A stretch of DNA of 64,000 nt from an uncultured Cytophagales bacterium (GTDB lineage: Bacteria > Bacteroidota > Bacteroidia > Cytophagales > Spirosomataceae), in the NCBI GenBank assembly GCA_963803495.1, contig CAWDMP010000001.1, positions 18,417-82,416 of the forward strand. Reading direction: 5' to 3'. A model generated the notes under the pieces. The model did not search any database and was not told where the DNA came from. It saw only the letters and a list, made by a program, of their open reading frames with translations. Positions 7,565-62,152 of the stretch are shown here, piece after piece. The position numbers and the translations under genes were made by a program. Every line of letters starts with the position of its first letter. The first letter of the stretch is position 1.

Positions 7565-7684
7565 GAATGGCGAGTACTTTATTAATATTTTTAAATCGAC
7601 TTCCTGATTTGGCCTTCGTTGTTCTAAACCCTTATATGCAGCAATTATCAAGCCGAGATGAGCACATGAGAGTACTTACTTGTC

Positions 7685-16987: not shown

Positions 16988-17059
16988 GGCCCATTCGTCT
17001 AGCGGTTAGGACACGACCCTTTCACGGTTGAAACAGGGGTTCGATTCCCCTATGGGTCA
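16988..17059 (+). tRNA. tRNA-Glu (anticodon TTC)
   Basis: GGCCCAT/ATGGGTC acceptor stem, anticodon arm CGACC-CTTTCAC-GGTTG, T-arm AGGGG-TTCGATT-CCCCT. CCA is not encoded. Confidence 0.97.
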
Positions 17060-17060
17060 C
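17045..17060 (+). repeat. attL core TTCCCCTATGGGTCAC
   Basis: 3' end of tRNA-Glu; identical to 58202-58217. Confidence 0.93.
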
Positions 17061-17296: not shown

Positions 17297-18574
17297 ATGA
17301 GCATCTATTTTTTCCTGAGAAATGGCCAGAGCGCCAGGGAGGATGAGCATTGCGTTATCTATTGCCAACTCGATGTGAAGGACGTGGGAAAGGGGGTGCC
17401 CTTCTCGACGAAGTTGAAAGTGCCGGCGGGCTTCTGGATGGTAGACTATCCGGCGGCCAAGGCGCGCCGGATCAGGCCCTCGTCGGCCGGCGCGCCGGTG
17501 TCGGCGAGCTACTACCTGGCCGACTCGCTGAACAAGAGTTTGCAGGCGCTGCGCCTGGGCCTGGTCAATGCCAAGGACGGCATCGAGGCGTTGGGCGAAA
17601 ACCCGACGCCGGCGCTGGTGAAGAGTACCTATTATAATGGGGGCCTGCGTCGGAAGCCCAAGACGCTGCTGGCGGTGTGGGACGAGCTGGTGGATGCGCT
17701 GGAAGACCAGGGCCGGGAAGGGTCGACGCTGGTGACGTACAGAACACGGCGCAACAATGTGGTGAAGTGGCTGGCCGATCGGAAGCAACTCCGGCTGTTG
17801 GTGTCGGAGGTGCGGTACCGCCATTGGGAAGACTTCGGCGTGTGGGCGCGGAGCCAGCGGAAACCGGATGGCTCCCGGTTGCTGGGCAAGAATACTATTA
17901 ATAAGCACCTCACTGCCATCAACAAGGCACTCGACTATGCCGTGAACAAGGAGTATCTTTCGTCGAATCCGATCGGATCGCTGAACCTCGAGTACGATCC
18001 TGCCGACGCGCCACATTATTTGCTGGCCGATGACCGGCGGCGGATTGCGGCCTGCGCCCTCAGCTCGCTGCGCGTCGAGCGGGACGTGGCCGTATTTCTG
18101 ATGCATACGGGCTTGAGCTATACCGATTACGTGAGCCTGGGCACGGAGCACTTGGTGACGCTGCCCAATGGGGAGCAGTTTCTTAAGAAAGCCCGGAATA
18201 AGACGAAGATATACTCCATCATCCCACTTCTGCCGGAGGCGTTGGCGGTGATCGGGCGGTGGGGGAGCATCGAGGCGCTGCCCCGGCCGGACCTGAGCGA
18301 CCTGAATAAGGCGCTTAAGATATTGGGTGAAAGCTGCGGGGTTGGTATCTCGCTGTCGACGTCGGTGTTCCGGGATACCTTTAGTAGTATGATGGAAAAC
18401 GAGTTCATGCTGGAGCTCCGGGTGATTATGGTGATGATGGGGCACACGAACCCGCGTCAGCTGCGGAACTATTCGTCGGTGCAGCCGGGGAGGATCCTGC
18501 ACGAGCTGCGGAAACACCAGGCAGAGCAGTTGCCGTTTCGGTTGGAGAATTTGCAGTTGCTAGCGGCGTCGTAA
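17297..18574 (+). CDS. int: Tyrosine integrase (Bacteroidota type: arm-binding, SAM-like and catalytic domains)
   Basis: TGLSYTD, RNKT, FRDTF, MGH and RNY motifs; adjacent to attL. Confidence 0.92.
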   Translation: MSIYFFLRNGQSAREDEHCVIYCQLDVKDVGKGVPFSTKLKVPAGFWMVDYPAAKARRIRPSSAGAPVSASYYLADSLNKSLQALRLGLVNAKDGIEALGENPTPALVKSTYYNGGLRRKPKTLLAVWDELVDALEDQGREGSTLVTYRTRRNNVVKWLADRKQLRLLVSEVRYRHWEDFGVWARSQRKPDGSRLLGKNTINKHLTAINKALDYAVNKEYLSSNPIGSLNLEYDPADAPHYLLADDRRRIAACALSSLRVERDVAVFLMHTGLSYTDYVSLGTEHLVTLPNGEQFLKKARNKTKIYSIIPLLPEALAVIGRWGSIEALPRPDLSDLNKALKILGESCGVGISLSTSVFRDTFSSMMENEFMLELRVIMVMMGHTNPRQLRNYSSVQPGRILHELRKHQAEQLPFRLENLQLLAAS

Positions 18575-19592: not shown

Positions 19593-20504
19593 ATGAATAC
19601 GCAAACGATTTTAACCGACAGCAGCCTTACCAAAACCGAGAAAATACGCCAGCTACTTGCCCTGGGAATAACCCGGCGCGGGGTGGCCGACCTGACCGGC
19701 TGCGGCTACGGGTTTGTACAGAATGTATTTGCCAAGTACTGGCCGGAGCAGGTTAAATCGAAGGGTTTTAACTTCATCCCCTTCAACCGGAAATTTGGCA
19801 TTGAGATTGAAGCCTACGGGGTGCCGATGCGCCGGGTAGCCGAAGCGCTTACCGCGGCCGGGATCAACTGCTACTCCGAGAGCTATAACCACACCAGCTG
19901 CGGCCACTGGAAGGTGGTAACGGACGGCAGCCTGAGCGGCGATAACACTTTCGAGATCGTAAGCCCGATATTGGAAGGAATGAACGGCCTGGCCCAGGTA
20001 GAAACGGTGAGCCGTGTGCTGACCACCCTCCGGGTCAAAATCAACAAAACCTGCGGCTTGCACATCCACTTCGACGCGGCCGGGCTCGGCCTGGAGCAAA
20101 TGAAGAACACCCTGGTAAATTACGCCAGCTACGAAGGCCTTATCGATAGCTTCATGCCCAACAGCCGCCGGGCCGATAACAATACTTACTGCCGGAGCGT
20201 GGTGCGCCTGGCCCTGCAGGCCGACCGGGCCACGAGCATCGGCGAACTGGTAGGCTTGCAGACGACCCGCTACCAGAAAATCAACCTACAGGCTTACAAC
20301 CGCCACCGGACGGTAGAGTTTCGCCAGCACTCAGGTACCATCGAATTTGAAAAAATTAAGAATTGGGTTGTATTTTTGCACAACCTGGTCGAGTACTCGA
20401 AGACCAAGCGCGTAGAAACGCCGAACCTGGCCAGCCTGGCGAAATTCCAGCAGCCAGAAGTACTTACCTATATCCACAACCGGATCAACGACCTAGCCGC
20501 CTAA
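19593..20504 (+). CDS. Putative amidoligase (Amidoligase_2 / COOH-NH2 ligase family) with N-terminal HTH
   Basis: FGIEIE, VTDGSL, FEIVSP, TCGLHIHF, RYQKIN and TVEFRQHSGT motifs. N-terminal KTEKIRQLLALGITRRGVADLTGCGYGFV is HTH-like. Confidence 0.88.
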   Translation: MNTQTILTDSSLTKTEKIRQLLALGITRRGVADLTGCGYGFVQNVFAKYWPEQVKSKGFNFIPFNRKFGIEIEAYGVPMRRVAEALTAAGINCYSESYNHTSCGHWKVVTDGSLSGDNTFEIVSPILEGMNGLAQVETVSRVLTTLRVKINKTCGLHIHFDAAGLGLEQMKNTLVNYASYEGLIDSFMPNSRRADNNTYCRSVVRLALQADRATSIGELVGLQTTRYQKINLQAYNRHRTVEFRQHSGTIEFEKIKNWVVFLHNLVEYSKTKRVETPNLASLAKFQQPEVLTYIHNRINDLAA

Positions 20505-23438: not shown

Positions 23439-25952
23439 ATGAAAAAAATGTTCCTGGGGCTTCTGCTCCTGCTCGGCCAATTGGCCAGCGCCCAGAACGT
23501 CGTCATTTTTCCGAAGGGCGACATTGCCACGGAGCAGTTCGTGCGCTCCTACGTGGATTCGATTCTGCGCTCCAAGCCGGTATCGCTGCCGCCCACCAAT
23601 GTAAAGGATGCCTGTGAGCGCGGACCTTACATCGAGACCATCGCCAATATCACTTCCGATAGCCTTTTTGCGCTGTTCGACGGGAAAGACGTTTTTGGGG
23701 TCGACTACCAAATTTTTCACGAGGGTAAGACGATCTACTCTTCTTCAATTCTGCCGCGCTCCAATGTTCTGAAAATCACTTACCCTACTTTGGCGGGTGG
23801 CGAATACACACTTCGCCTGGCGGGTAATACCTGCGTTGGCTCATCCACGCGGCCTTTCACGGTACCGTCGCGCGTAACTGTGCCCACCACGCCGGTCGCA
23901 ACGGCACTGCCGCCTTGCGAAGAAGGCCCCGAGGTGCGGCTGGTCTACGATGTTACCAAGAGCAACCTCACCTTCCGCTTTCATGCCGCCTCCGTGGAGG
24001 GTATGGACTGGAAGATTAACAGCGACCAGGGAACGGTCAGGTCGGGCAGTGTCCGCCCCAGTGAGAATATTATCTCGATTGCTTACGACCCGCTCAGCGC
24101 GGGCGACTACATACTTACGTTGTCGGGCAACACCTGCCGAGGCAAATCAAAGCCGTTTCGATTCACTGTACCCAAGTCGCTCGTCGAACGTCTTCCCGGA
24201 AAGATCGACCCAGACGACATCATCAAAGTACCGGGCGTGATCGATGCGCCTACGCCCAACGCCCGTCCTGGATTCGAATCGCCAGATTGGCATTTCGTCG
24301 CGCGGACTGACACCCAGTACCTCGACATAGAAATCAAGGGCTCGCCTGGGAAATGGCTGATCTACGACATCGCCCCCACAAAAGCGCCCGCAGGGCACGA
24401 AGAGCGCTATTTCGTTAATGGCGTGATGGTGAAAGGTCGGCTGAACGGCTACAAGTACGAGAGCAATGGTGTGCTGGACGTAGTGAAACATTTCGTCAAA
24501 ATTTCGCTTCCCAGCCTAGGCTACTGGCAGAACGACAATATCCGAGACGGTGGCTGGACATTCAGCCCCCGATCTGATGTCGGCTGCCAGGCAATTATCT
24601 TCTTTTCTTCGGACGACAACAAGCCAGGGTTACAATGGCTCGACCCAACCCCGAGCTGGTACCGAGGTACGCACGTGGTTAGCTGGCCAACCGCCGCCCC
24701 GGCAATGAGCCTGCCCGACCAAAAGTACATGATGTTCGATTTTCGTGCTTCTGGCGTAAGCGATGCTCAACGCATGGCGCGTGGCGAGACGTTCACCCCT
24801 TCCAATCCCGATAACGAACTGCGAAATTTCTACTGCCTGAATACAGACGATGCCAATATCGAGGACATCAATGGCAGCCGGGAAGATTTCCGACGCTACG
24901 CAGATCGCATTCCGCTTATGGCTACCCTGTCTTTTCAATTCGGCGAGTCGGCGCGTGGCGTACCTGATGTGTCGGACCGGCAACGCTGGTTCGTCGAGCG
25001 GCTCTACGAGCGCTACAAAGAGGCTGGACGAAAAAAATTCTTACTGTCGGCTGGCTATGGTGGCTATGACTACGAGGCGAGTGGCCAGTGGCCCAGCCCC
25101 TACAACAACGTAAGCCTGGCGGATGCACGACTACGCTATTCTGGCAATGTGGAAGATATTTTTTCAAGGGATAAATACCTGAGTTTTTTTCGCGGGAAAA
25201 TGAACACGATACTCCTAAAAAACTACGAAACGGATGGCTTGAACCCCTTTTCCAATCTACTCCGAGTTGCGAAATACGAATCGGTTCGCGCGGCTGGTTT
25301 CCTCGGGATCGAGTTCGGCTGGCACCTTAGCGAGCATGTTGGCGTGATCGGGTTCGTGCGCGGCTTCGGATGGCAGCATGAGTTGCCGGCTGGCGGCACG
25401 GCGATCGTCCAAGGCATGAGCGCTACCAATTTCGACGACGCCCTGGCCAATGGCTTCGCGTCGTTATGGTGGGGCGACGGATTTCGCGTGTGGGATGGGC
25501 AAGCCGAGCGTGGCTATGACCCCGCGACGGTATGGCGGGAGGGAGATTATTACGGTGCACGCACAGTAACGCTGTCGGGCAACGCCCAACTCACCGGTTC
25601 TGGCAGCGATCGCTACCCTGTGGAACCTGATATCGCTCTGGACGGAAAATACATCTCGGCCACACTCTACGCCAAGTGCGCCGCTACTGAGGGCGCGCCG
25701 ATTCGCTACAACGCGTTCACCGTTGCCGGGACTTCGTACATCGCCGAGCCTGATGGAGCGGATGCGCTGGTGGCCAACTCCCAAAAGCGGGGCATTTGCT
25801 CTATCCGCATAAAGGGGAAGGCTGCCACGCTGGTTTACTGGAATCCTTACGCCGGAAACGTCTGGACAAAATTCGAGACAATGATCGAAGGGAAGGTCTT
25901 TGGCGGGTGGGTTTTCGGCCGGAGAATCTATGTGGCGAACGTAACGATATAG
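23439..25952 (+). CDS. Large Sec-exported protein, 837 aa: two Cys-containing Ig-like repeats plus a putative TIM-barrel-like domain
   Basis: Signal peptide MKKMFLGLLLLLGQLASA-Q; repeats C..GP....GNTC twice; visible similarity to host protein 59301-61463. Confidence 0.8.
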   Translation: MKKMFLGLLLLLGQLASAQNVVIFPKGDIATEQFVRSYVDSILRSKPVSLPPTNVKDACERGPYIETIANITSDSLFALFDGKDVFGVDYQIFHEGKTIYSSSILPRSNVLKITYPTLAGGEYTLRLAGNTCVGSSTRPFTVPSRVTVPTTPVATALPPCEEGPEVRLVYDVTKSNLTFRFHAASVEGMDWKINSDQGTVRSGSVRPSENIISIAYDPLSAGDYILTLSGNTCRGKSKPFRFTVPKSLVERLPGKIDPDDIIKVPGVIDAPTPNARPGFESPDWHFVARTDTQYLDIEIKGSPGKWLIYDIAPTKAPAGHEERYFVNGVMVKGRLNGYKYESNGVLDVVKHFVKISLPSLGYWQNDNIRDGGWTFSPRSDVGCQAIIFFSSDDNKPGLQWLDPTPSWYRGTHVVSWPTAAPAMSLPDQKYMMFDFRASGVSDAQRMARGETFTPSNPDNELRNFYCLNTDDANIEDINGSREDFRRYADRIPLMATLSFQFGESARGVPDVSDRQRWFVERLYERYKEAGRKKFLLSAGYGGYDYEASGQWPSPYNNVSLADARLRYSGNVEDIFSRDKYLSFFRGKMNTILLKNYETDGLNPFSNLLRVAKYESVRAAGFLGIEFGWHLSEHVGVIGFVRGFGWQHELPAGGTAIVQGMSATNFDDALANGFASLWWGDGFRVWDGQAERGYDPATVWREGDYYGARTVTLSGNAQLTGSGSDRYPVEPDIALDGKYISATLYAKCAATEGAPIRYNAFTVAGTSYIAEPDGADALVANSQKRGICSIRIKGKAATLVYWNPYAGNVWTKFETMIEGKVFGGWVFGRRIYVANVTI

Positions 25953-25956
25953 CCCA

Positions 25957-26349
25957 ATGTGGATAGCTCAAAAATTCCAAACCATCGCTCTGGTCGTGCT
26001 GACGGTCCTGACGCTGGGCTTCCTGGTGATGGTGTATCGGTGCAGCACGTACAAAAGCCCTCCACTGGAACCCAAGCAAGTCTCCGATTCAGCCAAATTA
26101 TTAATCGAAGTGTATGAAACATCGCAGGTTAAATTCGACACCAACGCCCGGCGCGTGTATCGCGGTGATCCTGGGATTGATGCTATCCGCGACAGCCTTA
26201 GCGCAACAGTTGCCCGCGCCGTCGCGGACAGCCTACGAGTCCGCGCTGCTCGACAGTACCTACCTGTACCTCCAGCTCAAACCGCTGTACCGCCAGCTCC
26301 AAAAAGTCCACGAAGTAGAGCACAAGGAAAATCTACAACTCAGGACTGA
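25957..26349 (+). CDS. Membrane-anchored protein, i-spanin-like
   Basis: Single N-terminal TM helix with a periplasmic tail; first gene of the lysis cassette. Confidence 0.5.
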   Translation: MWIAQKFQTIALVVLTVLTLGFLVMVYRCSTYKSPPLEPKQVSDSAKLLIEVYETSQVKFDTNARRVYRGDPGIDAIRDSLSATVARAVADSLRVRAARQYLPVPPAQTAVPPAPKSPRSRAQGKSTTQD

Positions 26350-26509
26350 AAACGCAATGCTCGTACAGCAGAAAGCCATCGACAAGCAAACGATGGACGA
26401 GACTGTAGCCCGGTGCGAGCGGAAATTGAAGTGGGCGAAAGTCTGGGGGAATGTGAAAACAGTCGGGGCCGTCGTCGGGACGGTCTTCGTCGCAACAAAA
26501 GTGAAATGA
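26114..26509 (+). CDS. Overlapping (+1 frame) exported coiled-coil protein, spanin-partner-like
   Basis: Hydrophobic leader ..SATALA-QQ, coiled coil and C-terminal hydrophobic segment; ATGA overlap with the next gene. Confidence 0.5.
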   Translation: MKHRRLNSTPTPGACIAVILGLMLSATALAQQLPAPSRTAYESALLDSTYLYLQLKPLYRQLQKVHEVEHKENLQLRTENAMLVQQKAIDKQTMDETVARCERKLKWAKVWGNVKTVGAVVGTVFVATKVK

Positions 26510-26979
26510 CTATCTCTTTCAAATTGACACTGGTGCTTTTGAACGCACTGCTGGGCGGGACGCTTCTCACCCAGGCTTATGTGCTGGGCATATTTCCAGA
26601 TAAGTACTTCACTCTGGCTGCGGTCGGGTACGGCATTACGTCCAACATTGTCATCCTGGCCTACCAGATTTCCGTGACGTACCGCCGCATCGGGGAAGGG
26701 GATCTTACGGTAAAGCCACTCAATAAGTACTCCTGGATCGCGATGGCAAGCCAAACCCTCGCCGGAGCCGGGCTAAGTTTCCTGCTTAGCGGCGTGTACC
26801 GCGCCATGACTTTGGGCGATGGTTTTATGGGCTACAAGTATAGCGAGGGTTGGGAAATTTTTCTTGGCGTCGCCATTGGGCTGGGTACGATGTATTGGCT
26901 CAGCCCGGACGTCCGAAAACTCATCCAAGAGAGCATGCTGGCTAAACTGATCAAAAAATTCTTTGGTAAAAATGAATAA
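26506..26979 (+). CDS. Multi-pass membrane protein, holin candidate
   Basis: About four hydrophobic helices and a basic C-terminus; upstream of the endolysin candidate. Confidence 0.55.
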   Translation: MTISFKLTLVLLNALLGGTLLTQAYVLGIFPDKYFTLAAVGYGITSNIVILAYQISVTYRRIGEGDLTVKPLNKYSWIAMASQTLAGAGLSFLLSGVYRAMTLGDGFMGYKYSEGWEIFLGVAIGLGTMYWLSPDVRKLIQESMLAKLIKKFFGKNE

Positions 26980-27694
26980 GCTCACCCACATCCTGGAACT
27001 GCTTTTTGGCATTTGGAAGGTAATCGAGCCCTACGCTCTGGGCACCATGCCCTACGTTGGCCTTATTATCGCCATCGTGTACGGTAAGACAGTGCACGAT
27101 TATATTCAGACTATTCCCGGCGCGGCCCGCAAACGACATTGGCTCCGAAGGGTGGGTTTCAATTTGGGCTTTATGGTGATTGTGATATTCCGCGTTCACG
27201 ATCCCTTCAACCTCCAACTGTCGATGGGAGGAGCATTTTTTATGCTGATCGTGCTGAAATCCATCGAGATGAGGGCCGACACCAGGTACTACAAAAAGAA
27301 CTACATCGCCACGTTCTTTTTCGAATCAACGGGCAAGACGATGGATGAAGCCAAGCCTTTCGACATCGTGGCGTTTTTGATTTTGATGCGCCAACTAAAA
27401 ACGATGGTTGTGGGCAACCTGAAAGTCGAGCTGCTCGACGATCGGCCGGGCGTGGTGGCCAGGCTTAAATTCACTTTTCTGGAAGACGACGATTTTCCCT
27501 ACCAATGGCACCAGTTCGTGGAAATGACGCAGGCGATATCGGGTATCGTCCGGGTGAATGGGAAGCTGGTCGAATGGGGAGCCTGGGTGCGGATCGAGGA
27601 GAATCAGGTTCACAACGTGAGTGGCACCAAGGGCTCCGAGGCGCTCAGCGAGTTTTACGAAATCGAGCTTTTACCTTCAACTTCAATCTGTTAA
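26963..27694 (+). CDS. Membrane protein (holin/antiholin-like N-terminus, soluble C-terminal domain)
   Basis: Three TM segments in the first ~100 aa; lies in the lysis cassette. Confidence 0.5.
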   Translation: MVKMNKLTHILELLFGIWKVIEPYALGTMPYVGLIIAIVYGKTVHDYIQTIPGAARKRHWLRRVGFNLGFMVIVIFRVHDPFNLQLSMGGAFFMLIVLKSIEMRADTRYYKKNYIATFFFESTGKTMDEAKPFDIVAFLILMRQLKTMVVGNLKVELLDDRPGVVARLKFTFLEDDDFPYQWHQFVEMTQAISGIVRVNGKLVEWGAWVRIEENQVHNVSGTKGSEALSEFYEIELLPSTSIC

Positions 27695-28174
27695 ATGGAG
27701 ATCCTGCAAAAAAGAGTAAAACGCGGTAAGAACAGTACGCTGAGCATCTTGTACGTGGATGGCGTCAAGCGGGGTTACGTGGTGGAAGACAAAGATCGGG
27801 ACTTGCACTCGACGATGACCTTGGCCCAAATCAAGGCGATCAAAGTGCATTCCCAAACGGCAATCCCAACGGGGCGGTACCAAATCGTGCTGCACTTCTC
27901 GGATGGCATGAAACGATGGGTGGCGATGTTCCTGGGCGTTCTGGGCTTTTCCTACATCTATATGCACATCGGAAACTGGATCAAAGATACCAAGGGTTGC
28001 GTGTTGCCCGGCCTATCGTGGGGCTTCGAGAATGGTGAGTACTGCGTCCGTAATAGCTCAAAGCTTTTTGAACCGCTGCTCGGTGAGATTCGGGTAGCAA
28101 TCAAGAGCGGCGAAGAAGTGTGGTATACGATTGAGCAGGCGTACGAGGATGGGGCGGGGCGATTGTTGGTTTAA
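27695..28174 (+). CDS. DUF5675-family protein, putative endolysin
   Basis: TAIPTGRYQI and IYMHIGN..KDTKGCVLPG motifs (His/Cys), typical of this Bacteroidota phage family. Confidence 0.8.
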   Translation: MEILQKRVKRGKNSTLSILYVDGVKRGYVVEDKDRDLHSTMTLAQIKAIKVHSQTAIPTGRYQIVLHFSDGMKRWVAMFLGVLGFSYIYMHIGNWIKDTKGCVLPGLSWGFENGEYCVRNSSKLFEPLLGEIRVAIKSGEEVWYTIEQAYEDGAGRLLV

Positions 28175-33774: not shown

Positions 33775-36700
33775 CCGGAGACGTACTGGAATTGGACCTT
33801 CGGCTGAAAACGGCTGAGATCCAGAAAAATCTTGACACGGTGAACAGCCAGGCCAAAGACCTGCGGAAAATCATCAAGGACATCGAGCTCAATGGCGGCA
33901 AAGGCGGCGAAGAGTGGAAAAAGTACAAAGCCGAGCTGAGGGATACGCAGGAGCAGGCAGCGAAGCTTTCGCGGGAATTGAAGGACATGAAGGTGGCCGA
34001 CATGACCATCCGCCAGCTCGAACAACACGCCAAAGCGCTGGCCAAGGAAATCAAAAACGCCGACCGCAGCTCGCAGGATTTCGTAAAAAACTCGAAGCGC
34101 CTGGGCGAAGTCGAAAAGGAACTCGACAAGGCTCGGCAGCAGGCCAAAGACCTGAAAGGCGAGGCCGAAACGATGGGCAAGCCAGGTTTGTGGGGCAAGA
34201 TTACCAGTGGCGTGAAAACGGTTGGCAATGCCTTCCAGGCCATTATGGCGCTTGCGGTGTTACAGTGGATTTACAACCTGGGTAAGGCGATTTTCGATAC
34301 GACGGCGAATTTTGAGAAGTACGAGAAGGTGCTCTCGACCGCGCTGGGTGATCCGAAGCAGGCAAAGGCGAGTATGAAGGCCATTAAGAAGATGGCGGCC
34401 GAAACGGCGTTCAGCGTCGACGAGCTGACGGACGGCTATGTGAAAATGGTAAACCGAGGGCTGCGGCCTTCGCAAAAAGAAATGGTGGCGCTGACCGACC
34501 TGGCGGCTTCCCAGGGGAAAACGTTCGACCAATTGGTGGAAGCCGTGCTCGACGCCCAGACCGGGGAGTTTGAACGCCTGAAGGAGTTTGGCATTAAGGC
34601 GCGGAAGGAGGGCGATAACGTGTCGCTTTCATTCAAAGGGCAAACCCAAACCGTAAAAAACAACGAGGAGGCCATTTACCAAGCAATGATCGCGATGGGG
34701 GCCATGACCGGCGTCGCGGGTCAGAATGCCGAAATGATGACGACGCTCAACGGCAACTCGTCGAACCTCGGTGATAGCTTCGATGCTTTGACTGTCGGCC
34801 TGGGCAACGGACTGAAACCGGTATTCATCGCCATTCTGGATTTGATTGCGGCATCATTGCCGTTGCTGAGTCTTTTGGGCAAAGGGCTGGGGACGGTGCT
34901 TCTGCTGGCCAAGGCGGCCATCGCCGGAGTTCTCGATACCGTGATGAACGTCGGAAAGGCCTTCGTTACACTTGGTGAAGCGGCCAGGGCATTCATGTCG
35001 GGCAATACGGAAGGGGCCAAGAAACTGCTCGACGAAGCGCAGGATCACGGCAAGAAAGCGCTGACTTCCATCGAGGATAATGTGAAGCAGGGAGTCATAG
35101 AAATCGGCAATCTGTGGGTGAATCCTGATGCGGCCGTCAAGGCCGAGTTTGCGGGTAAAATCCAGGGCGAACGTCACCAGGCTGCACTTTCCAAGGAACA
35201 GGAAAAGGGGATCGCGAAACGGGAGAAGGCCACGGCCAAGACCCTGGAAATGGTAGCGCAGCTTACGGCCGAGCAAGAGCAACTGATGGCGGCTAACAGC
35301 GTGGCCACGGAGGAGTCGAAAATTGAGGAGAAGCGCCGGAAGCGCCTGAAAGAGATCGATGACTCGCTGGCGAGTGAGGAAGCCAAGGAGCAGGCGCGGC
35401 TACTGATTAACAAGAATGCGGATCTGCAATTGCACCAGGTTCGGCAGAAGGATAATGCCAAAGCGCTGGAACTGCTGGCGCAACTGGAAGCGGAGCACGA
35501 CCAAAAGGTGGCGAGCAATTCGCTGACCGTAGAAGAATCGAAAATTGAGGAAAAGCGCCGGAAGCGCTTGAAAGAAATCGAAGACTCGAAGGCCGACGAA
35601 GCGGTGAAGGCGCAGGCGATCGAGGCGATCAACCGCAACGCGGAAGCGGAACTGGACAAGGTGCGGACCGACTACCGGCAGAAACGCCAGCGGGAAGAAG
35701 CAGAGGCCGCTCAGAAGCGCCAGGAAGCCGAGAATTTCATCCGTACGCAGGAGCAGGCGGCGGAGAAGTCGATCTTCGATTGGCGGGAGATGCAGGCCAA
35801 GGGTAACGCTCAGAAGCTCGCCGCCATCAAAAAAGAGCGGCTCGACGCGGAGCTTCGGTACACTCAGGAAAAACTACAGGCCGAAATGGTGGCCGAGCAA
35901 ATTAAGGCTACCAAGGATATCGAGGATGCCCAATTGCTCAGCCGGACGCTGACAGCCATCGAGGATAAGTACCACTCGGCGTCGGTGCTGGCCGAAGCCA
36001 AGGCGGCGGCCGAAAAGGCTAAAATCGACCAGGATCTGCACGATGCTAAGGTTGCCAAGGTTAAGTCGTACTCGGAAGCCTTCTCGGCGTTGTTGCGGGG
36101 TGATGTGAACGCCTTCATCGACGCGTCGTCTAAGATCGTGCAGGGCCACAAGACTGCCTGGCAGGAACAGATGGCCAAGAACCAGGAGATGTACCAAATG
36201 GGCGCTGACCTGGCCAAGCAGGCGGTTTCGTTCTTGAACGACCTGGCTCAGCAGAAAGCTCAGAAGGCGATTGCTCAGGCACAGCGGGAGTTCGACGAGA
36301 AGATGGGGATCCTGAATACGGAGCTGGCCACGACAGAGTCACTCATTACGAGTAGCTCAAATTATATCCAGAGCCTCAAAGCGGCCGAAACGGCCCGGCT
36401 GACGGAGTTGCAGCGAATACTATCGAGTGAAACGGCGACGGAGGAGGATAAGCGCCAGGCGCTGAAAAAGTACTATTCGGAGCAGTTGCAGGATATGAAA
36501 GCGGCCGAAGAGGCCAAAATCGAGGATCTGCAACGGTTGGCAAACCTGGCCAAGACTGAGGATGAAAAGCAAGCCATCGAGGCCAAGATCAAAATGGCCA
36601 AGGAGGAGTCGGAAACCAAGATAAAATTGGCGGAAGACGAACTCGATAAGAAGAAAAAGGCGATAGATGAGTTGACGGAATTCACGACCGAGACGACCGA

Positions 36701-37865: not shown

Positions 37866-38354
37866 ATGGTTAAGCGGATTACGATTCAGTTGCCTGGTTA
37901 TTTGAAGAAGTTTTATATGTACGAGTATTCGGGCTCTCGGTCGGGGAAGGGGGAGCGGGAACGCGACGAGATCCACGTCGACAAAACGAGTGAGCTGGGG
38001 AAACTGATTCACCTGATCAGTCGGCCGATCCCGTTTACGCAGCATTACCAGCGACCGACGGGCGAGGGCTTGCTTTCGGTGCGGTACTACGTGCGAGAGA
38101 AGATTTACGATATTCCGGTCGAAAAATTGCCGCAGCTGGTGACGCAGATGGAGGAGATTTTTCGGCGGACGATCATCTGCGAGGTGCGGGGCGGGCACGA
38201 TCTGTGCTCGGGCGACTACGGGCCGCTGGTGGCGATCGCGCTGGAGCGCCGGGGCATCGTGCGCGACGTCGACATCGATTACCAGACGGTTCGGAAGATT
38301 TATCGGGATTATATCGGGCGAATCGCGAAAATAAACGGAAAAACATTTGCGTAG
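37866..38354 (+). CDS. Hypothetical protein, possible DNA-binding regulator
   Basis: 162 aa. RHH-like N-terminus (RITIQLPGYLKKF) and HTH-like C-terminus (ALERRGI..IDYQTVRKIYRDY). Confidence 0.55.
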   Translation: MVKRITIQLPGYLKKFYMYEYSGSRSGKGERERDEIHVDKTSELGKLIHLISRPIPFTQHYQRPTGEGLLSVRYYVREKIYDIPVEKLPQLVTQMEEIFRRTIICEVRGGHDLCSGDYGPLVAIALERRGIVRDVDIDYQTVRKIYRDYIGRIAKINGKTFA

Positions 38355-38410
38355 AAAGTAACGGAAATGCGCAGTAAGTAACGGTTTTGCGTAGAAAGTA
38401 ACGGAAATGC
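38351..38410 (+). repeat. Three tandem 20-bp units (core AAGTAACGG..TGC)
   Basis: GTAGAAAGTAACGGAAATGC / GCAGTAAGTAACGGTTTTGC / GTAGAAAGTAACGGAAATGC. Confidence 0.9.
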
Positions 38411-38438
38411 CTAAAAAGTCCAGGCTCCTGGACTAACT

Positions 38439-38471: not shown

Positions 38472-38506
38472 GCTATTAAAATCCGCGTGGAAAATGGCGC
38501 GTTTTT

Positions 38507-38542
38507 GGTCCTTTCTTTCGGGGGAATTCGCTTCTACTTTTC
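38507..38542 (+). promoter_or_regulatory. Candidate late promoter, copy 3
   Basis: GGTCCTTT at 38507 and TACTTTTC at 38535. Confidence 0.55.
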
Positions 38543-38546
38543 GGAC

Positions 38547-39086
38547 ATGATTGGTACGTTGGAACAAATGGGCTTTCGGCCACAGCGGCGCTACAACGCC
38601 GGGTACCTGGTGCGGGTGCTGCTGGTGCCGACTACCGACGTGGACTACGTACTTACGCCCGACGAGAATCTGCTGATTCCCGAGTGGGGCATCGGCCTGA
38701 AACCGGGCGCGCGGATCTTCGAGATTCTGTGCAGACCGCAGACGGCCACGCTCGTCGACTCGTACCAGGGCGACGGCGCTTACCAGGGCGAAGTGAGCAT
38801 TCCGGTGCTGACCGAAGACGACGCGCTGACGCGCTGGGTGGCGCGCTACGAAAAGCACCGCTGGCTGACACTGGCGCAGGATACGCTGGGGCGCTGCTAC
38901 TGCCTGGGACGGCCCGACAACGGCGGCCGCCTGGCCTGGGGGCGGCAGGTGACGGGCCGCAACGTGCAGAGCCTGACGATCAGGACGACGATGCTGCACC
39001 CGGCCGCGCAGCTGACGACGCTGGACCCGGCGGTGCTTTTTGCGGAGCATCGCTTCGACGCCCGGTTCGACCTGAGTTTTATTTAA
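38547..39086 (+). CDS. Phage tail-region hypothetical protein
   Basis: ATG 38547 in ORF 38487-39086; C-terminal FDARFDLSF motif. Confidence 0.6.
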   Translation: MIGTLEQMGFRPQRRYNAGYLVRVLLVPTTDVDYVLTPDENLLIPEWGIGLKPGARIFEILCRPQTATLVDSYQGDGAYQGEVSIPVLTEDDALTRWVARYEKHRWLTLAQDTLGRCYCLGRPDNGGRLAWGRQVTGRNVQSLTIRTTMLHPAAQLTTLDPAVLFAEHRFDARFDLSFI

Positions 39087-39441: not shown

Positions 39442-40074
39442 ATGGAATACGAAGGAGTAGGCCCGGAAGTGGAATTTGTCGGCGGACGCGGGCCGCGCGG
39501 CTGGACGCCGTTGTTTCAATTTGTGAAAATTTCGGAGGGGCAATTTGCCCTAGCGCTATTCGATTGGACAGGCGGAAAACTGCCAAAGCCCCCGACGGGG
39601 TTCGTAAATGAGACGGAGGTATTGGGTTCTTGGGAGACGGCGACGGTATTCGGTGGGCTGCCTGGCGCGAGTGCCTACGATGTGTGGATCGAGGAAGGGA
39701 ACGTAGGCACGAAGGCTGAGTATCTGGAATCGCTGCGCGGGACTGACGGTGAGCTGACGGCTGCCTACCTGGCGCTGGCGGCGCAGATGAAACAGGCGCA
39801 CTTGGCAGCGGTGCAGTATAACGCGCTGCTGGTGGCACTGTACGGGTCGTTCCCGACCGCTACGGTAGCGGACATTAGGGGCTTGGAGTTTGTGCCAATT
39901 GATGCCGCCAGCGTAGTGAAGCCCGCTTATTTTGTGGCTCAGCTCAATGGTGTTTTCAAGTACTCGGCCACAGAGATGGGCTTCGATGACGCCCAAAATA
40001 TACTGGTCGACGCTTCGGAAAATCGCTGGGTACGAACTAGCCTTTATGAAGACATTTATGATTCAAATCGATGA
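39442..40074 (+). CDS. Tail fibre / collar protein
   Basis: GPRGWTP..DWTGG..KPPTG and GASAYDVW..GNVGTKAEYLESLRG motifs typical of fibre-associated proteins. Confidence 0.65.
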   Translation: MEYEGVGPEVEFVGGRGPRGWTPLFQFVKISEGQFALALFDWTGGKLPKPPTGFVNETEVLGSWETATVFGGLPGASAYDVWIEEGNVGTKAEYLESLRGTDGELTAAYLALAAQMKQAHLAAVQYNALLVALYGSFPTATVADIRGLEFVPIDAASVVKPAYFVAQLNGVFKYSATEMGFDDAQNILVDASENRWVRTSLYEDIYDSNR

Positions 40075-41267
40075 AAATGAAGAAGCTAAAACTGATTGTC
40101 TTATTTCTGATGGTATCGGGCCTGGCGCTTGGGCAGAACGCCCAGGTAGCCAAGGATACGATCAATACCCGCTTGCAGGTTGGATTGAAATACCCGGCAC
40201 CTCGGGTGCAGGATCAGGCGGCGGCTATGCGCTACTTGGTAGACTGGACGGCGGCGGGGCTGGCTGGAAAGCTTAGCCTGGCGGACTCGGCGAAGTTCTT
40301 GCGGGCGGGGTACATCTATAGTAACCCCAACTGGCTGATACTCACGAAGGGCTTCGTCGGTCTTGGTAGTGTCGACAACACGAGCGACGCGAACAAGCCA
40401 CTTTCCAGCGCGGCCATCACGGCATTGGCTGGCAAGCAGGCTCTGATCGGGACAGGCGGGCTGAACTTGGACCGGCTAAACCAAAGCGGAGCGGCATCTG
40501 GACAAACGATCCAATGGAATGGCTCGGCCTGGGTAGCGGCGACGCCCGCGACGGGAGCGGATGCGTTGCTAGCTGGAAACAACACCTGGACTGATGCGAA
40601 TACTTTTGCGGGAGGGATATTACCGGCCTCCAATAATGTAGGCACTATCGGGACTTCGACGCGGGGATTTAATACAATTTTTAGCTACAAATTCCAAAGT
40701 CCCGGACAGATTACGGTTGCTTCCAACACCTCTCACATATCTTTTCAATCCAGCGCAGAATATGGTAAGATGTTTAATACAGGGCGCTGGTTCATAGGGC
40801 CTAACCCTGTGGACGATGGGATTACGACGCTCAACGTCGGCGGCAGGATAAAAAGTAATGCCGGCATTGACATTACCGGGCCGGATTTCACCAATGGGCT
40901 CACCCTGAATGGTGGGAAGATTCTTTTCGCCTACGGAAATCGCCTTGTTATTCAATCGCCAAATTTTACTGGTGGCGGTATTCACTTTGGGGGAACATCT
41001 CAGCAAACCAGCATCATGCAGGTGCTCTCGACCCCATCTAACCCTGGTGTGTATATTGGGAAGGGTGCCAATACGCCTAACAAATCCCAGCCTTCGGCGG
41101 GATTAGAGTTAGAATCTGACACACAGGGGATGCTGCCTTTTCGCATGACGGAGGCCAATCGGTTGGCGGTTCAGAACCCGGCTCCCTGGCTGCACATTCT
41201 GCAAACTGATGGCGATGCTGGGATGTACGTTAATAAGCCCGTAGTGGGCTGGACAAAAGTTTATTAA
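40071..41267 (+). CDS. Tail-fibre-like protein bearing a Sec signal peptide
   Basis: MKMKKLKLIVLFLMVSGLALG-QN; fibre motifs VGLGSVDNTSDANKPLS, QTIQWNGSAWV and SAGLELESDTQGMLPFRMT. Confidence 0.7.
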   Translation: MKMKKLKLIVLFLMVSGLALGQNAQVAKDTINTRLQVGLKYPAPRVQDQAAAMRYLVDWTAAGLAGKLSLADSAKFLRAGYIYSNPNWLILTKGFVGLGSVDNTSDANKPLSSAAITALAGKQALIGTGGLNLDRLNQSGAASGQTIQWNGSAWVAATPATGADALLAGNNTWTDANTFAGGILPASNNVGTIGTSTRGFNTIFSYKFQSPGQITVASNTSHISFQSSAEYGKMFNTGRWFIGPNPVDDGITTLNVGGRIKSNAGIDITGPDFTNGLTLNGGKILFAYGNRLVIQSPNFTGGGIHFGGTSQQTSIMQVLSTPSNPGVYIGKGANTPNKSQPSAGLELESDTQGMLPFRMTEANRLAVQNPAPWLHILQTDGDAGMYVNKPVVGWTKVY

Positions 41268-41287
41268 CCAATTATTAAATCCTGAAT

Positions 41288-41662
41288 ATGAAACGTCTGA
41301 TTGCGATTTCCTTTTTCCTGTTTGCCTTCTCGTCAGCCAACGCCCAGAGCGTGGACATCGCGCTGAAGCCCTTTCCGCTCGAAATTCCCGACGTCAACAA
41401 CCTGAAAGTCGTTCCGATCGGGGCGTTGATAAAATCGGCTGACCCCTCGGATAGCACGAAGTTTATCTACACTCAGCAGATTTACTACGAGCTCAGCCGG
41501 ACCGACGGCCGGGCGGTGGAATCCAAAAACATCGTGGTACCCGAGCGGATGATGGTGCTGCTGGTGAATTATCAGAAAGGCGAGTTGACGGTGAACGAGA
41601 CGTACGAGGTCAACGCTTACCTGGCGTATTTCAATCCGAAAATCGAGATTAGGGAAGAATGA
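41288..41662 (+). CDS. Small Sec-exported hypothetical protein
   Basis: MKRLIAISFFLFAFSSANA-QS. Confidence 0.7.
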   Translation: MKRLIAISFFLFAFSSANAQSVDIALKPFPLEIPDVNNLKVVPIGALIKSADPSDSTKFIYTQQIYYELSRTDGRAVESKNIVVPERMMVLLVNYQKGELTVNETYEVNAYLAYFNPKIEIREE

Positions 41663-42048
41663 CAAACTACCCGGAGATTCGCGTCGAGAAGTATTTCCAG
41701 ACGGATAAGAATGATCTTTTCACGGTCTGTGAAGACTGCTGGGTCGAGATTCTGGGACCGGGGGAAGGTGTGTTGATCCCGGCCGGGTTCGTGACTGATT
41801 TTGCGAGTGTGCCCCAATGGATGTGGGGCATCATTCCGCCACACGGCAAGATGGCCAACGCCGCGATCGTACACGATTATATGTACGATAATCGGCAGTA
41901 TGAGCGGGTATTGGGCATCGACGGGGCGCGGGCTTTTGCCAATGCGCTGTTCCTGAGCAATATGCTTAGGGCGGGGGTGCCTTCCAAGCAGGCACATTTG
42001 TACTACCTGGCTGTGAGGTGGTTTGGAAAAAAATGGTGGGTGAGTTGA
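41659..42048 (+). CDS. DUF1353-family protein
   Basis: IPAGFVTDFASVP, AAIVHDYMY and AVRWFG motifs. Confidence 0.9.
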   Translation: MTNYPEIRVEKYFQTDKNDLFTVCEDCWVEILGPGEGVLIPAGFVTDFASVPQWMWGIIPPHGKMANAAIVHDYMYDNRQYERVLGIDGARAFANALFLSNMLRAGVPSKQAHLYYLAVRWFGKKWWVS

Positions 42049-42078: not shown

Positions 42079-42112
42079 ACAGCCCGGATGCGATGCATCC
42101 GGGCTGTTTTTT
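42079..42112 (+). terminator. Terminator
   Basis: 13-bp stem ACAGCCCGGATGC/GCATCCGGGCTGT plus T-run. Confidence 0.9.
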
Positions 42113-44707: not shown

Positions 44708-45403
44708 ATGAAGATTCTTAATTTTTTGATGGCCCTCGGCCTGGTGATGGTGGCGGCCGCGGTGACGGTGACGACGCAAAACCCGCTGATGGGCCTGGCG
44801 GCCGCGAGCTTGACGGCGGTGGCAGTCGAGCAACTCTTCGGCTTTTCGCTGGTGGACTTGGGCGGCTCGTTGAATTTGCTGGCGATTACGGGCTTGAAGC
44901 GTAAGGCACAAACCCTGACGATCGGCGGCGCGAAGCGGCTCTTCCTGGCGCTGACGGAGGATATTGCCAATGAGTTCCTGACTTATGAGCTGGCGAAGAG
45001 CACTGGCGAGTATAGCGGCGCGATTCCGCTGGTAGTAGGTAAGATGTTTGTCGAAATCGAAGCCTGGTACGATACGTCGAAGTTCGATACTGAAATGAAG
45101 ATCGGGGCGGGCTTTTCGCAAGGCATGGAGTTCAAGGTGCTGGGCTATGATAAGGACATCGTGAAGCTGACGGCGCTGCTGCTGGACACGCCGGTGATCG
45201 CCATTATCCAGGGTAACGACGATTCGCGCTACTGCCTGGGTCAGAAGTACATTCCGTTGATGTTCGAGATGAAGAGTGTGCTGCCTGAAAAGGGTACGGC
45301 CCGCAAGGAGGCCACTTTTATGGCCAAGCAGGACGGAATGCAGATTCCCGCCTTCCCGCTGAACGCCGATGTGACGTTCGACGTGACGCCGTTGACGGTA
45401 TAA
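44708..45403 (+). CDS. Putative major tail (tube) protein with an N-terminal hydrophobic hairpin
   Basis: Core IGGAKRLF..GAIPLVVGKMF..IIQGNDDSRYCLGQ resembles Bacteroidota phage tail tubes; first ~55 aa are strongly hydrophobic. Confidence 0.6.
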   Translation: MKILNFLMALGLVMVAAAVTVTTQNPLMGLAAASLTAVAVEQLFGFSLVDLGGSLNLLAITGLKRKAQTLTIGGAKRLFLALTEDIANEFLTYELAKSTGEYSGAIPLVVGKMFVEIEAWYDTSKFDTEMKIGAGFSQGMEFKVLGYDKDIVKLTALLLDTPVIAIIQGNDDSRYCLGQKYIPLMFEMKSVLPEKGTARKEATFMAKQDGMQIPAFPLNADVTFDVTPLTV

Positions 45404-61495: not shown

Positions 61496-62152
61496 TTACC
61501 ACCAACGGTAAAACAAACCAACGGTAGCATTGACTTGTCCAATTCCTTTGTCGACGTAATCGTAATCGAGGGCGGTCTGATTGTACTTTACCCGGATGTC
61601 GGCGCCAATCGAACCATCGCGTTTGAACAGGAATTTGGCACCTGCCGCCCCACCGTAAGAAAACTTCACGGCCTCCTTCTGATTGGCAAGACTACCGTAA
61701 TATAAGGTATAATCCAGCAGATCGGCACCGGCAGCGACCTGCACGTATGGGCGTATCATGGCGCTGGTTGGAGCGAAATAGTAGCTCAACACGCCCTGAA
61801 TGGGCATCAAAGAGGCAGTTCGGGTTTGCACCGCCGATACCTCCTGCTCACCGATGGTATAAATCGTGCGGGGCATTTTCTGCGAAAACATGGTTCTGCC
61901 TACCTCTACGCCCACCGAGATGGGGCCCTGCAGTACCCAATCGAGCGAAGCCGAATAGCTCTGAATCGTAGGCTTATCGATATAGCCACTGCTGAAAGGC
62001 CCGAGTGGAAACGCTCCACCACCACGGACCGTCAGAGCATAATGCGAGTAACGCTGCCAGGGCGATGGAGCATTATAGAGTTGCGGGTTTTGTTGCGCAT
62101 AGGCAGAAGCACTTACGGTAAGGAAAACAAAAAATATCTTTAACGATCTCAT
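61496..62152 (-). CDS. Outer-membrane beta-barrel protein (OmpW/porin-like)
   Basis: Signal peptide AYA-QQ, alternating beta-strands, C-terminal GLFYRWW. Confidence 0.8.
   Translation of the reverse strand: MRSLKIFFVFLTVSASAYAQQNPQLYNAPSPWQRYSHYALTVRGGGAFPLGPFSSGYIDKPTIQSYSASLDWVLQGPISVGVEVGRTMFSQKMPRTIYTIGEQEVSAVQTRTASLMPIQGVLSYYFAPTSAMIRPYVQVAAGADLLDYTLYYGSLANQKEAVKFSYGGAAGAKFLFKRDGSIGADIRVKYNQTALDYDYVDKGIGQVNATVGLFYRWW

Follow-up and report, generated by a model that had tools for sequence, protein, structure and literature searches.

In a 64,000-nucleotide (nt) stretch of DNA from an uncultured Cytophagales bacterium (contig CAWDMP010000001.1 of assembly GCA_963803495.1; the whole stretch is called the window, and coordinates refer to it), the tail operon of a prophage appears to encode a tail-fibre homologue that leaves the cytoplasm. 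The protein has 398 amino acids (aa), is encoded from position 40071, and is followed by a 124-aa protein encoded from 41288. Both start with a leader of the type recognised by Sec and cleaved by signal peptidase I (SPase I), and in both the predicted cleavage site is followed by glutamine. This is the Q-rule, which is established for SPase I substrates of Bacteroidota (PMC5837995, PMC10653852). Judged from its sequence, the element is a siphovirus-type prophage in a Bacteroidota (Cytophagales-like) host. Export of the two proteins via Sec is well supported by their N-termini, and they almost certainly work outside the cytoplasm.

Both open reading frames (ORFs) lie exactly where the original prediction had placed them, and the leaders that it had read there (SGLALG-Q and SSANA-Q) are canonical. 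The 398-aa protein begins with MKMKKLKLIVLFLMVSGLALG/QNAQ, where the slash marks the predicted cleavage site; its n-region carries a charge of +4, the h-region has 13 residues, alanine is found at −3, glycine at −1 and glutamine at +1. The 124-aa protein begins with MKRLIAISFFLFAFSSANA/QSVD and has an n-region charge of +2, a core of 11 residues and A-N-A before Gln20. Since the hydrophobic cores are 11 to 13 residues long, they fit a cleavable leader and are not long enough to cross a membrane. The ATG at 40071 overlaps the stop codon of the upstream gene (ATGA), its frame is closed by a stop codon three codons 5' of the ATG, and the first methionine past the hydrophobic core is M53. A start codon downstream of the leader was therefore ruled out, because a perfect in-frame leader is very unlikely to arise by chance; no plausible start avoids the leader, a point on which the original prediction depended. 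A fusion of the upstream gene (39442) with 40071 by frameshifting was also rejected, as the overlap is just ATGA and the 40071 frame has its stop three codons upstream.

The leader calls rest on the classical rules and on conservation in homologues. A home-made rule set, asking for a charged n-region, an uncharged hydrophobic core of 10 residues and small residues at −3 and −1, was applied to the 312 ORFs of at least 60 aa in the six frames of the window. Nine of them passed, one of these being a spurious ORF without the glutamine. Five have glutamine after the cleavage site, namely four prophage genes (Q22, Q20, Q19 and Q31) and a host gene at 61496-62152 with the site AYA/QQ. The combination of leader and glutamine is far beyond chance. 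Besides the genes at 40071 and 41288, the prophage genes are those at 23439 and 26114, for which the same pattern had been proposed (LASA-Q and ALA-Q), and both sites are present in the sequence. It seems very improbable that the four hydrophobic segments are uncleaved anchors, cytoplasmic helices or false-positive leader calls. According to one report, SignalP predicts leaders for some phage capsid proteins (PMC10367356), which would allow for such an error. However, charge, h-region length (11 to 13 residues), small residues at −3 and −1 and glutamine at +1 agree in four genes of one element, the features of the two sister genes are kept in their homologues, and for 40071 no alternative start is available.

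The sister gene at 23439 encodes an 837-aa protein that begins with MKKMFLGLLLLLGQLASA/QNVV and has three repeats, each with a cysteine pair, and a large C-terminal domain. Its homologue P0123, from the related phage L009, is 52% identical and carries the leader MKKMFQLVLLVLLSSANILA/Q; it is one of two tandem paralogues of L009 (5238-9742), both with a leader and then glutamine, the second with the site …GVLG/Q. The 131-aa protein encoded at 26114 has a homologue in L009 (9916-10308) with the site …ATVCA/Q and the same arrangement of coiled coil and C-terminal anchor. Since homologues at about 50% identity keep both leader and glutamine, export seems to be under selection in this phage type. 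The pairing of cysteines in each repeat of the 837-aa family, like the Cys-rich mature N-terminus of P0005, a leader-bearing fibre relative described below, is typical of folding outside the cytoplasm. Residues 669-700 of the 837-aa protein match weakly the CW_7 cell-wall-binding repeats of the lysozyme Cpl-7 (PDB 5i8l), with no repeat reaching significance by itself, and the protein may be an exported cell-wall-binding or muralytic protein. Scans of the Dyadobacter prophages found no relatives of this module, which is carried by L009 and L010 only. The region 25957-28174, which includes the 131-aa gene, is a probable lysis cassette; it continues with ORFs with several membrane segments at 26413 and 26963 and a DUF5675 protein at 27695-28174. 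The 131-aa protein resembles the single-component spanin-like genes that are annotated in Porphyromonas gingivalis phages.

The tail-fibre motifs that had been noticed in the 398-aa protein were borne out by the searches. Tail-fibre and minor-tail families of PHROG match residues 73-184 (best 5e-10), and the conserved module of residues ~84-200 (Table 1) has 335 relatives in an indexed and 4236 in an exhaustive search. By tblastn, it matches annotated minor tail or tail-fibre proteins of cultured phages of Arthrobacter, Gordonia, Rhodococcus, Pseudomonas and Synechococcus. The C-terminal module and a stretch of P0176, a 1384-aa fibre protein without a leader, are 35% identical over 117 residues, and the motif of the module is also found in P0127. 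A full-length relative of the 398-aa protein was absent from both database searches. The 124-aa protein had no homologue in 5.8 billion clusters and no match in Pfam, PHROG, NCBIfam or PADLOC. Pfam gave no domain, including no Peptidase_S74, for either protein, searches of the PDB by sequence returned noise only, and the AlphaFold2 (AF2) models were unreliable, with predicted local distance difference test scores of 52 for the 398-aa monomer and 57 for the 124-aa protein.

How often such fibre-motif proteins carry leaders was surveyed with home-made rules and on a few short contigs. A leader-like N-terminus was found in 5/119 and 9/144 of the relatives returned, and 11 of these 14 have glutamine at the predicted +1. 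The leader-bearing forms, about 5% of the relatives returned, appear to be essentially restricted to organisms that follow the Q-rule. The premise of the original prediction, that tail fibres normally have no signal peptide, thus holds for the other ~95%, and the leader-bearing minority shows the pattern that it had described. Among cultured Bacteroidota phages no leader-bearing fibre homologue was found, and the one fibre of a cultured Flavobacterium phage that was checked, which has the matching motif (hemulen gp066), is without a leader.

Six of the leader-bearing relatives were placed on contigs; those of L008 and L020 lie on contigs that are too short to judge. P0099 (L006) lies between a large tail gene, which it adjoins on the upstream side, and a phage lysozyme gene, with a further ORF with leader and glutamine nearby. 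P0006 (L007) is located past the holin-like genes of a phage that is related to Flavobacterium siphophages and looks lytic, with thymidylate synthase and methylase genes; a leaderless 364-aa fibre-repeat gene is encoded separately, apart from P0006. P0005 (L019) follows a Peptidase_S74 fibre gene and another ORF with leader and glutamine, and P0052 (L021), with its start corrected, is the middle one of three such consecutive ORFs. Runs of two or three adjacent ORFs of this kind around a leader-bearing fibre were seen at L021 575-2698, L019 2929-5751 and L006 4225-4644. The small leader-bearing partners have no detectable family in common with each other or with the 124-aa ORF of the window. 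Leaderless tail-fibre or spike genes are also present in L007, L019, L020 and L006, and loci with a leaderless and a leader-bearing fibre fit an accessory role of the latter. From these loci, leader-bearing fibre proteins, often in small sets, appear to be a recurring feature of the tail-fibre regions of Bacteroidota phages.

Exported proteins of this type are also found on the host side. Many long fibre-repeat proteins with leader and glutamine exist. A chromosomal, non-phage gene of Emticicia agri (L034 5650-7407) encodes a leader followed by glutamine, the fibre motif VGLDKVDNTPDLEKPVS and a beta-helix domain, and in a metagenome-assembled genome of the Chitinophagales (L033 5467-7647) a leader-bearing beta-helix gene lies within an exopolysaccharide export and polymerase locus. 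By their sequences, these two genes are probably host-side counterparts of the phage proteins.

The position of the 398-aa protein was compared in eight distinct related elements, the window included. In six of them (L001, L002, L004, L005, L011 and L017/L018), the gene for a conserved protein of 183-199 aa is followed by that for an adaptor-type receptor-binding protein without a leader, which consists of an N-terminal part of about 60 aa (MPWNP…SPPxP…NTAxxVR…W) and a variable body. In the window and in Dyadobacter sp. CY343 (L003), the adaptor protein is missing and leader-bearing proteins take its place. In L003, the slot holds a single gene (6334-8592) for a 752-aa protein with the leader …FVRA/Q and a beta-helix of the pectate-lyase type, a fold typical of tailspikes and depolymerases. 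By its sequence, it appears to be a second, independent exported protein of receptor-binding type that replaces the adaptor type. Hidden homology of the mature N-termini to the MPWNP adaptor had been suspected by eye and was rejected, since a profile hidden Markov model of the adaptor, built from six relatives, matched neither the 398-aa protein nor the 752-aa protein of L003. The window keeps a different proximal fibre module on the separate ORF at 39442: its residues 1-72 share 38% identity with the N-terminus of a 735-aa second fibre in the Rhabdobacter prophage L004, and a tblastn match links it to an Acinetobacter phage tail fibre. The 398-aa protein has no similarity to the C-terminal part of the 735-aa fibre.

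The missing adaptor could also mean that the locus has decayed, with the adaptor-type protein lost by recombination and the leader-bearing ORFs remaining as leftovers or passengers without a selected function. Besides the loss of the protein that 6/8 elements have, the apparent split of the fibre into ORFs of 210 and 398 aa and the lack of relatives of the 124-aa and the full-length 398-aa protein would agree with this. On the other side, the ORFs of the tail module are intact and tightly packed and maintain their coding GC content at third codon positions (GC3), the core genes of the prophage are full-length, and the arrangement of leader plus fibre recurs independently in several phages. We regard decay as improbable.

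Of the proposal that the two proteins are exported adhesins, the export part is supported by the canonical leaders, the conservation in the sister genes and the recurrence in other phages, whereas no recognisable route was found for the display on the lysogen surface that had been suggested as well. The 398-aa protein has no cysteine at all and the 124-aa protein none near its leader, which excludes a lipobox. The models of NCBIfam include the type A and type B sorting domains of the type IX secretion system (T9SS). At E values up to 0.1, no T9SS C-terminal domain and no other NCBIfam match was obtained for the proteins of 40071, 41288 and 23439, the 752-aa protein of L003, P0099, P0006 and P0005. 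On current knowledge, an SPase I substrate without surface-sorting signals stays in the periplasm. Since lipobox, T9SS domain and any sign of a beta-barrel are missing, the periplasm, or exit from it by some other route, is expected for the two proteins.

Expression from the lysogen, and hence lysogenic conversion, had also been proposed. Scans for sigma-70-like and Bacteroidota-type promoters (TTTG…TAnnTTTG), which are weak tests, gave no match near 40071 or 41288, there is no spacer upstream of 40071, and the pair has no terminator of its own; the sole strong terminator follows the DUF1353 gene. By this layout, the pair does not look like an autonomous moron and gives no hint of expression in the lysogen. 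The composition of 40071 deviates slightly from its surroundings, with a GC content of 0.53 vs 0.56-0.63 in the neighbours, the lowest GC3 of the tail module (0.60) and a codon log-ratio of −0.03 per codon, which is slightly host-like and a weak signal.

Such a composition would be in line with the pair being a captured host-type cassette for a secreted fibre or adhesin, expressed by the lysogen and displayed or released, for example in vesicles, to alter adhesion or surface properties without a role in the phage life cycle. The exported fibre-motif proteins of Cytophagales chromosomes (L034) and the many long fibre-repeat proteins with leader and glutamine point in the same direction, and precedents are lambda Lom (PMC12309495) and the MAT proteins of Bdellovibrio bacteriovorus (PMC10769870). 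Set against this are the missing promoter, terminator and intergenic spacer, the missing lipobox and T9SS domain for surface delivery, the weakness of the codon-usage signal and the occurrence of similar proteins in the lytic-looking L007. We consider it quite unlikely that the pair is cargo of this kind.

We tentatively favour a reading in which the 398-aa protein serves, after its export, as an accessory fibre for receptor masking or exclusion in the cell envelope. Following the Sec/SPase I rules and the Q-rule, the 398-aa and 124-aa proteins would cross the inner membrane via Sec and be cut before Gln22 and Gln20, respectively, and the host glutaminyl cyclase would convert the new N-termini to pyroglutamate. 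The 398-aa protein would then differ from conventional fibres, which are assembled in the cytoplasm, and be an exported accessory copy of receptor-binding-type modules. Its production would coincide with that of the late tail proteins and its site of action would be the cell envelope during infection or induction, where it would most plausibly bind or mask the phage's own carbohydrate or envelope receptor, for example the nascent surface polysaccharide on the periplasmic side. This would lead to superinfection exclusion and keep newly made phages from re-adsorbing to debris. The role of the 124-aa protein would be that of a partner exported alongside or of an exclusion factor in its own right, like T5 Llp or Cor of phi80/N15.

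We favour this accessory role for four reasons. A leader is useful only if the protein acts or matures outside the cytoplasm before lysis; the well-studied leader-bearing genes at receptor-binding loci (Lom, Llp and Cor) are accessory envelope factors; several loci hold a normal fibre together with a leader-bearing one; and the virion adaptor of the lineage is missing from the 398-aa protein. The beta-helix enzyme of L003 and the L033 gene in the exopolysaccharide locus fit the picture of receptor masking.

Several observations weigh against an accessory role. Neither the full-length 398-aa nor the 124-aa protein has relatives that bear on its function, and PADLOC linked neither of the two to any known family of defence or exclusion proteins. 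How a protein in the periplasm would reach a receptor on the surface is not obvious. The genes are part of the late tail operon, with the coupled ATGA start, without a promoter of their own and with the terminator after DUF1353, and this placement has the look of structural genes and not of a classical moron. The window contains no other full-size candidate for a receptor-binding protein, and since the sole gene in the slot of L003 is leader-bearing, such proteins might be the real receptor-binding proteins.

The last points would be accounted for by a virion assembly in two compartments, in which the 398-aa protein matures in the periplasm and serves as the phage's actual distal fibre or receptor-binding protein. 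The exported fibre would join the tails bearing the 39442 protein upon opening of the inner membrane by the holin, or after lysis, and the 124-aa protein would be a periplasmic assembly partner. In support, 40071 is translationally coupled to the proximal fibre gene within one late tail operon with a shared terminator, the 39442 protein is short and consists of an N-terminal fibre module only, and no other full-size receptor-binding candidate is found 3' of the tape-measure gene. L003, otherwise intact in this region, has only the leader-bearing tailspike-like beta-helix gene in the slot, and P0099 in L006 abuts a large tail gene on one side and the lysozyme gene on the other. Fibres can attach to fibreless particles in vitro, as in the classical T4 complementation. 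However, we know of no tailed phage with a two-compartment fibre assembly, lysis dilutes the contents of the cell, and little time passes from holin triggering to lysis. In addition, the 398-aa protein has no adaptor domain of the lineage, L007 has a normal and a leader-bearing fibre that are placed apart, and the cultured Flavobacterium phage fibre with the matching motif lacks a leader. We regard this assembly as rather unlikely for the window. It also seems unlikely that there is a whole set of Bacteroidota tailed phages in which the distal fibre or tailspike is a Sec substrate that acquires pyroglutamate, folds in the periplasm and is mounted when the holin breaches the membrane.

The genes discussed here and the landmarks of the prophage are collected in Table 1. 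Capsid relatives with 57-69% identity were found in prophages of Dyadobacter soli, D. diqingensis, D. beijingensis, Dyadobacter sp. CY343 and Rhabdobacter roseus, and further ones on metagenomic and IMG/VR contigs; because these relatives lie in Dyadobacter and Rhabdobacter prophages, the host is taken to be a Bacteroidota of the Cytophagales type, and the Q-rule site of the host gene at 61496-62152 agrees with this phylum. The tape-measure gene is followed by ORFs of 162, 199, 110, 210, 398 and 124 aa, the DUF1353 gene, the terminator and then the head genes. Homologues of the DUF1353 protein occupy the same position in L002, L004 and L005, and the region from the tape-measure gene to the head protease gene has no strong terminator-like site other than the hairpin behind the DUF1353 gene.

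Table 1. Features of the prophage in the window; the slash marks predicted SPase I cleavage.
Feature	Position	Strand	Remarks
tRNA-Glu	16988-17060	+	ARAGORN; left end of prophage
Tyrosine integrase	17297-18574	+	phrog_1, 3.5e-18; left prophage end, adjoins tRNA-Glu
Amidoligase-family gene	19593-20504		phrog_2443, 3e-45; directly after integrase
Portal-like gene	start 20803		
837-aa protein	23439-25952	+	Leader residues 1-18 (…LASA/Q); between DUF6712 gene and putative lysis genes
ORF with N-terminal membrane segment and Pro-rich tail	25957-26349		Overlaps 26114-26509 out of frame
131-aa protein	26114-26509	+	Leader residues 1-30 (…LSATALA/QQLP); predicted coiled coil and C-terminal membrane anchor; spanin-like
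Tape-measure protein, 1331 aa	33771-37766	+	PHROG tape-measure families, best 3e-38; opens the tail-tip genes
Proximal tail-fibre module, 210 aa, no leader	39442-40074	+	Stop overlaps start of 40071; PHROG tail-fibre motif at residues 72-104
Fibre-module protein with predicted N-terminal Sec/SPase I leader, 398 aa	40071-41267	+	
Predicted signal peptide of 398-aa protein, residues 1-21	40071-40133	+	MKMKKLKLIVLFLMVSGLALG; predicted cleavage before Gln22
Conserved fibre module of 398-aa protein, residues ~84-200	40320-40670	+	Includes VGLGSVDNTSDANKPLS and IQWNGSAWV
C-terminal fibre module of 398-aa protein, residues 270-382	40878-41216	+	Ends …GMLPFRMTEANRLAV…
ORFan with predicted leader, 124 aa	41288-41662	+	Starts 20 nt 3' of the fibre gene; leader residues 1-19
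DUF1353 protein (PHROG 'tail assembly chaperone')	41659-42048	+	PF07087, 3e-23; phrog_1158, 8e-32; last gene of tail operon
Intrinsic terminator-like hairpin	42079-42107	+	13-bp stem, 9 G-C pairs, T-run; closes tail operon
S49 head-maturation protease	start 42268		
Major capsid gene	start 43700		
Large terminase	start 47064		

The order of the modules between 20803 and 48557 is unusual, with a portal-like gene and lysis genes followed by the tail, the terminator, the protease, scaffold and capsid genes, and the terminase at the end. The left module, from the portal to a 445-aa gene, is common to L009 and L010 and was not found in the Dyadobacter prophages whose head and tail-tip modules match, which makes the element a mosaic. 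The amidoligase-family gene has the same position in L009 and L010. An attR copy of the 3' end of the tRNA-Glu gene was searched for as a direct repeat within the window and none was found; the GC content falls to 0.435 at 56-58 kb of the window. The tape-measure gene has an internal direct duplication of 177 nt with 71% identity at 35220-35618. Between the tail genes 37866-38354 and 38487-39086, a unit of about 20 nt (TTTGCGTAGAAAGTAACGG-like) is repeated three times in tandem (38346-38419), which could be a regulatory site within the tail operon. Directly after the major capsid gene, a 231-aa protein (44708-45403) is encoded, with two hydrophobic segments in an N-terminal extension of about 60 aa that is kept in L016 (2318-3040); the homologue in L005 and L017 (L005 7109-7699) is without it and is encoded elsewhere, ahead of the protease gene.

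Fibre and receptor-binding proteins set the host range of phages, and the usual assumption is that both their synthesis and their assembly take place in the cytoplasm. If the 398-aa protein is accessory, it would represent a new type of phage envelope factor derived from receptor-binding modules and would bear on superinfection exclusion, receptor masking and surface remodelling in Bacteroidota. If it is a virion fibre, assembly could span two compartments, a pathway unknown for Caudoviricetes, and a demonstration by virion proteomics that the fibre functions in its exported form would be of high interest. Either way, the genome-based prediction of receptor-binding proteins is affected, as a leader alone should not rule a protein in or out. 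The Q-rule would also be extended from host proteins to tail-module genes of phages in environmental Cytophagales.

Compared with the conventional fibres that have the GLGNVDNTSDxxKP motif, from actinophages, cyanophages and hemulen (gp066), the 398-aa protein shares the repeat, the C-terminal module and the location in the tail module. These fibres have no leader and, in the lineage of the window, an N-terminal virion adaptor, which the 398-aa protein lacks. PblA and PblB of the Streptococcus mitis phage SM1 are tail-fibre-type proteins as well; they are parts of the virion and also act on the bacterial surface. Unlike the 398-aa protein, they have no leader and reach the surface only after release by holin and lysin.

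Phage-tail-fibre-like proteins with signal peptides are known as the MAT proteins of B. bacteriovorus (PMC10769870), which makes a fibre-type architecture compatible with a signal peptide. In contrast to the 398-aa protein, the MATs are encoded by chromosomal genes of the predator and have a beta-rich domain of about 130 aa after the leader, many of them also an S74 chaperone-protease domain. Pfam did not detect these features in the 398-aa protein, and the low-confidence AF2 model predicts the segment after its leader to be helical. We set it apart from the MATs on the basis of their description.

Cor of phi80 and N15 is a leader-bearing accessory envelope protein. Leader-bearing accessory envelope proteins are also encoded at the receptor-binding loci of lambda (Lom, PMC12309495) and T5 (Llp, bioRxiv 10.1101/2022.06.28.497910). 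The three are good analogues of the 124-aa protein, which is likewise small, leader-bearing and encoded beside a fibre gene. They differ from it in that Lom is a beta-barrel, whereas Llp and Cor are lipoproteins with a lipobox cysteine. Unlike the 398-aa protein, none of them is fibre-like, and there is no sequence similarity.

Q-rule secreted proteins of unassigned function have been described in prophages of P. gingivalis (PMC10367356). They share with the proteins of the window the Sec leader, the glutamine at +1 and the location in a Bacteroidota prophage at a tRNA gene, and in both cases the phage would be adapted to the secretion and glutaminyl-cyclase system of its host. The window differs from them by a clear tail-fibre homologue, by the receptor-binding slot and by an environmental host of the Cytophagales type. 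Taken together, what appears to be new, as far as sequences can tell, is a tail-fibre homologue with a Q-rule leader that is encoded within a tail operon, at the place that the receptor-binding protein has in related elements, together with evidence that such proteins recur across Bacteroidota phages.

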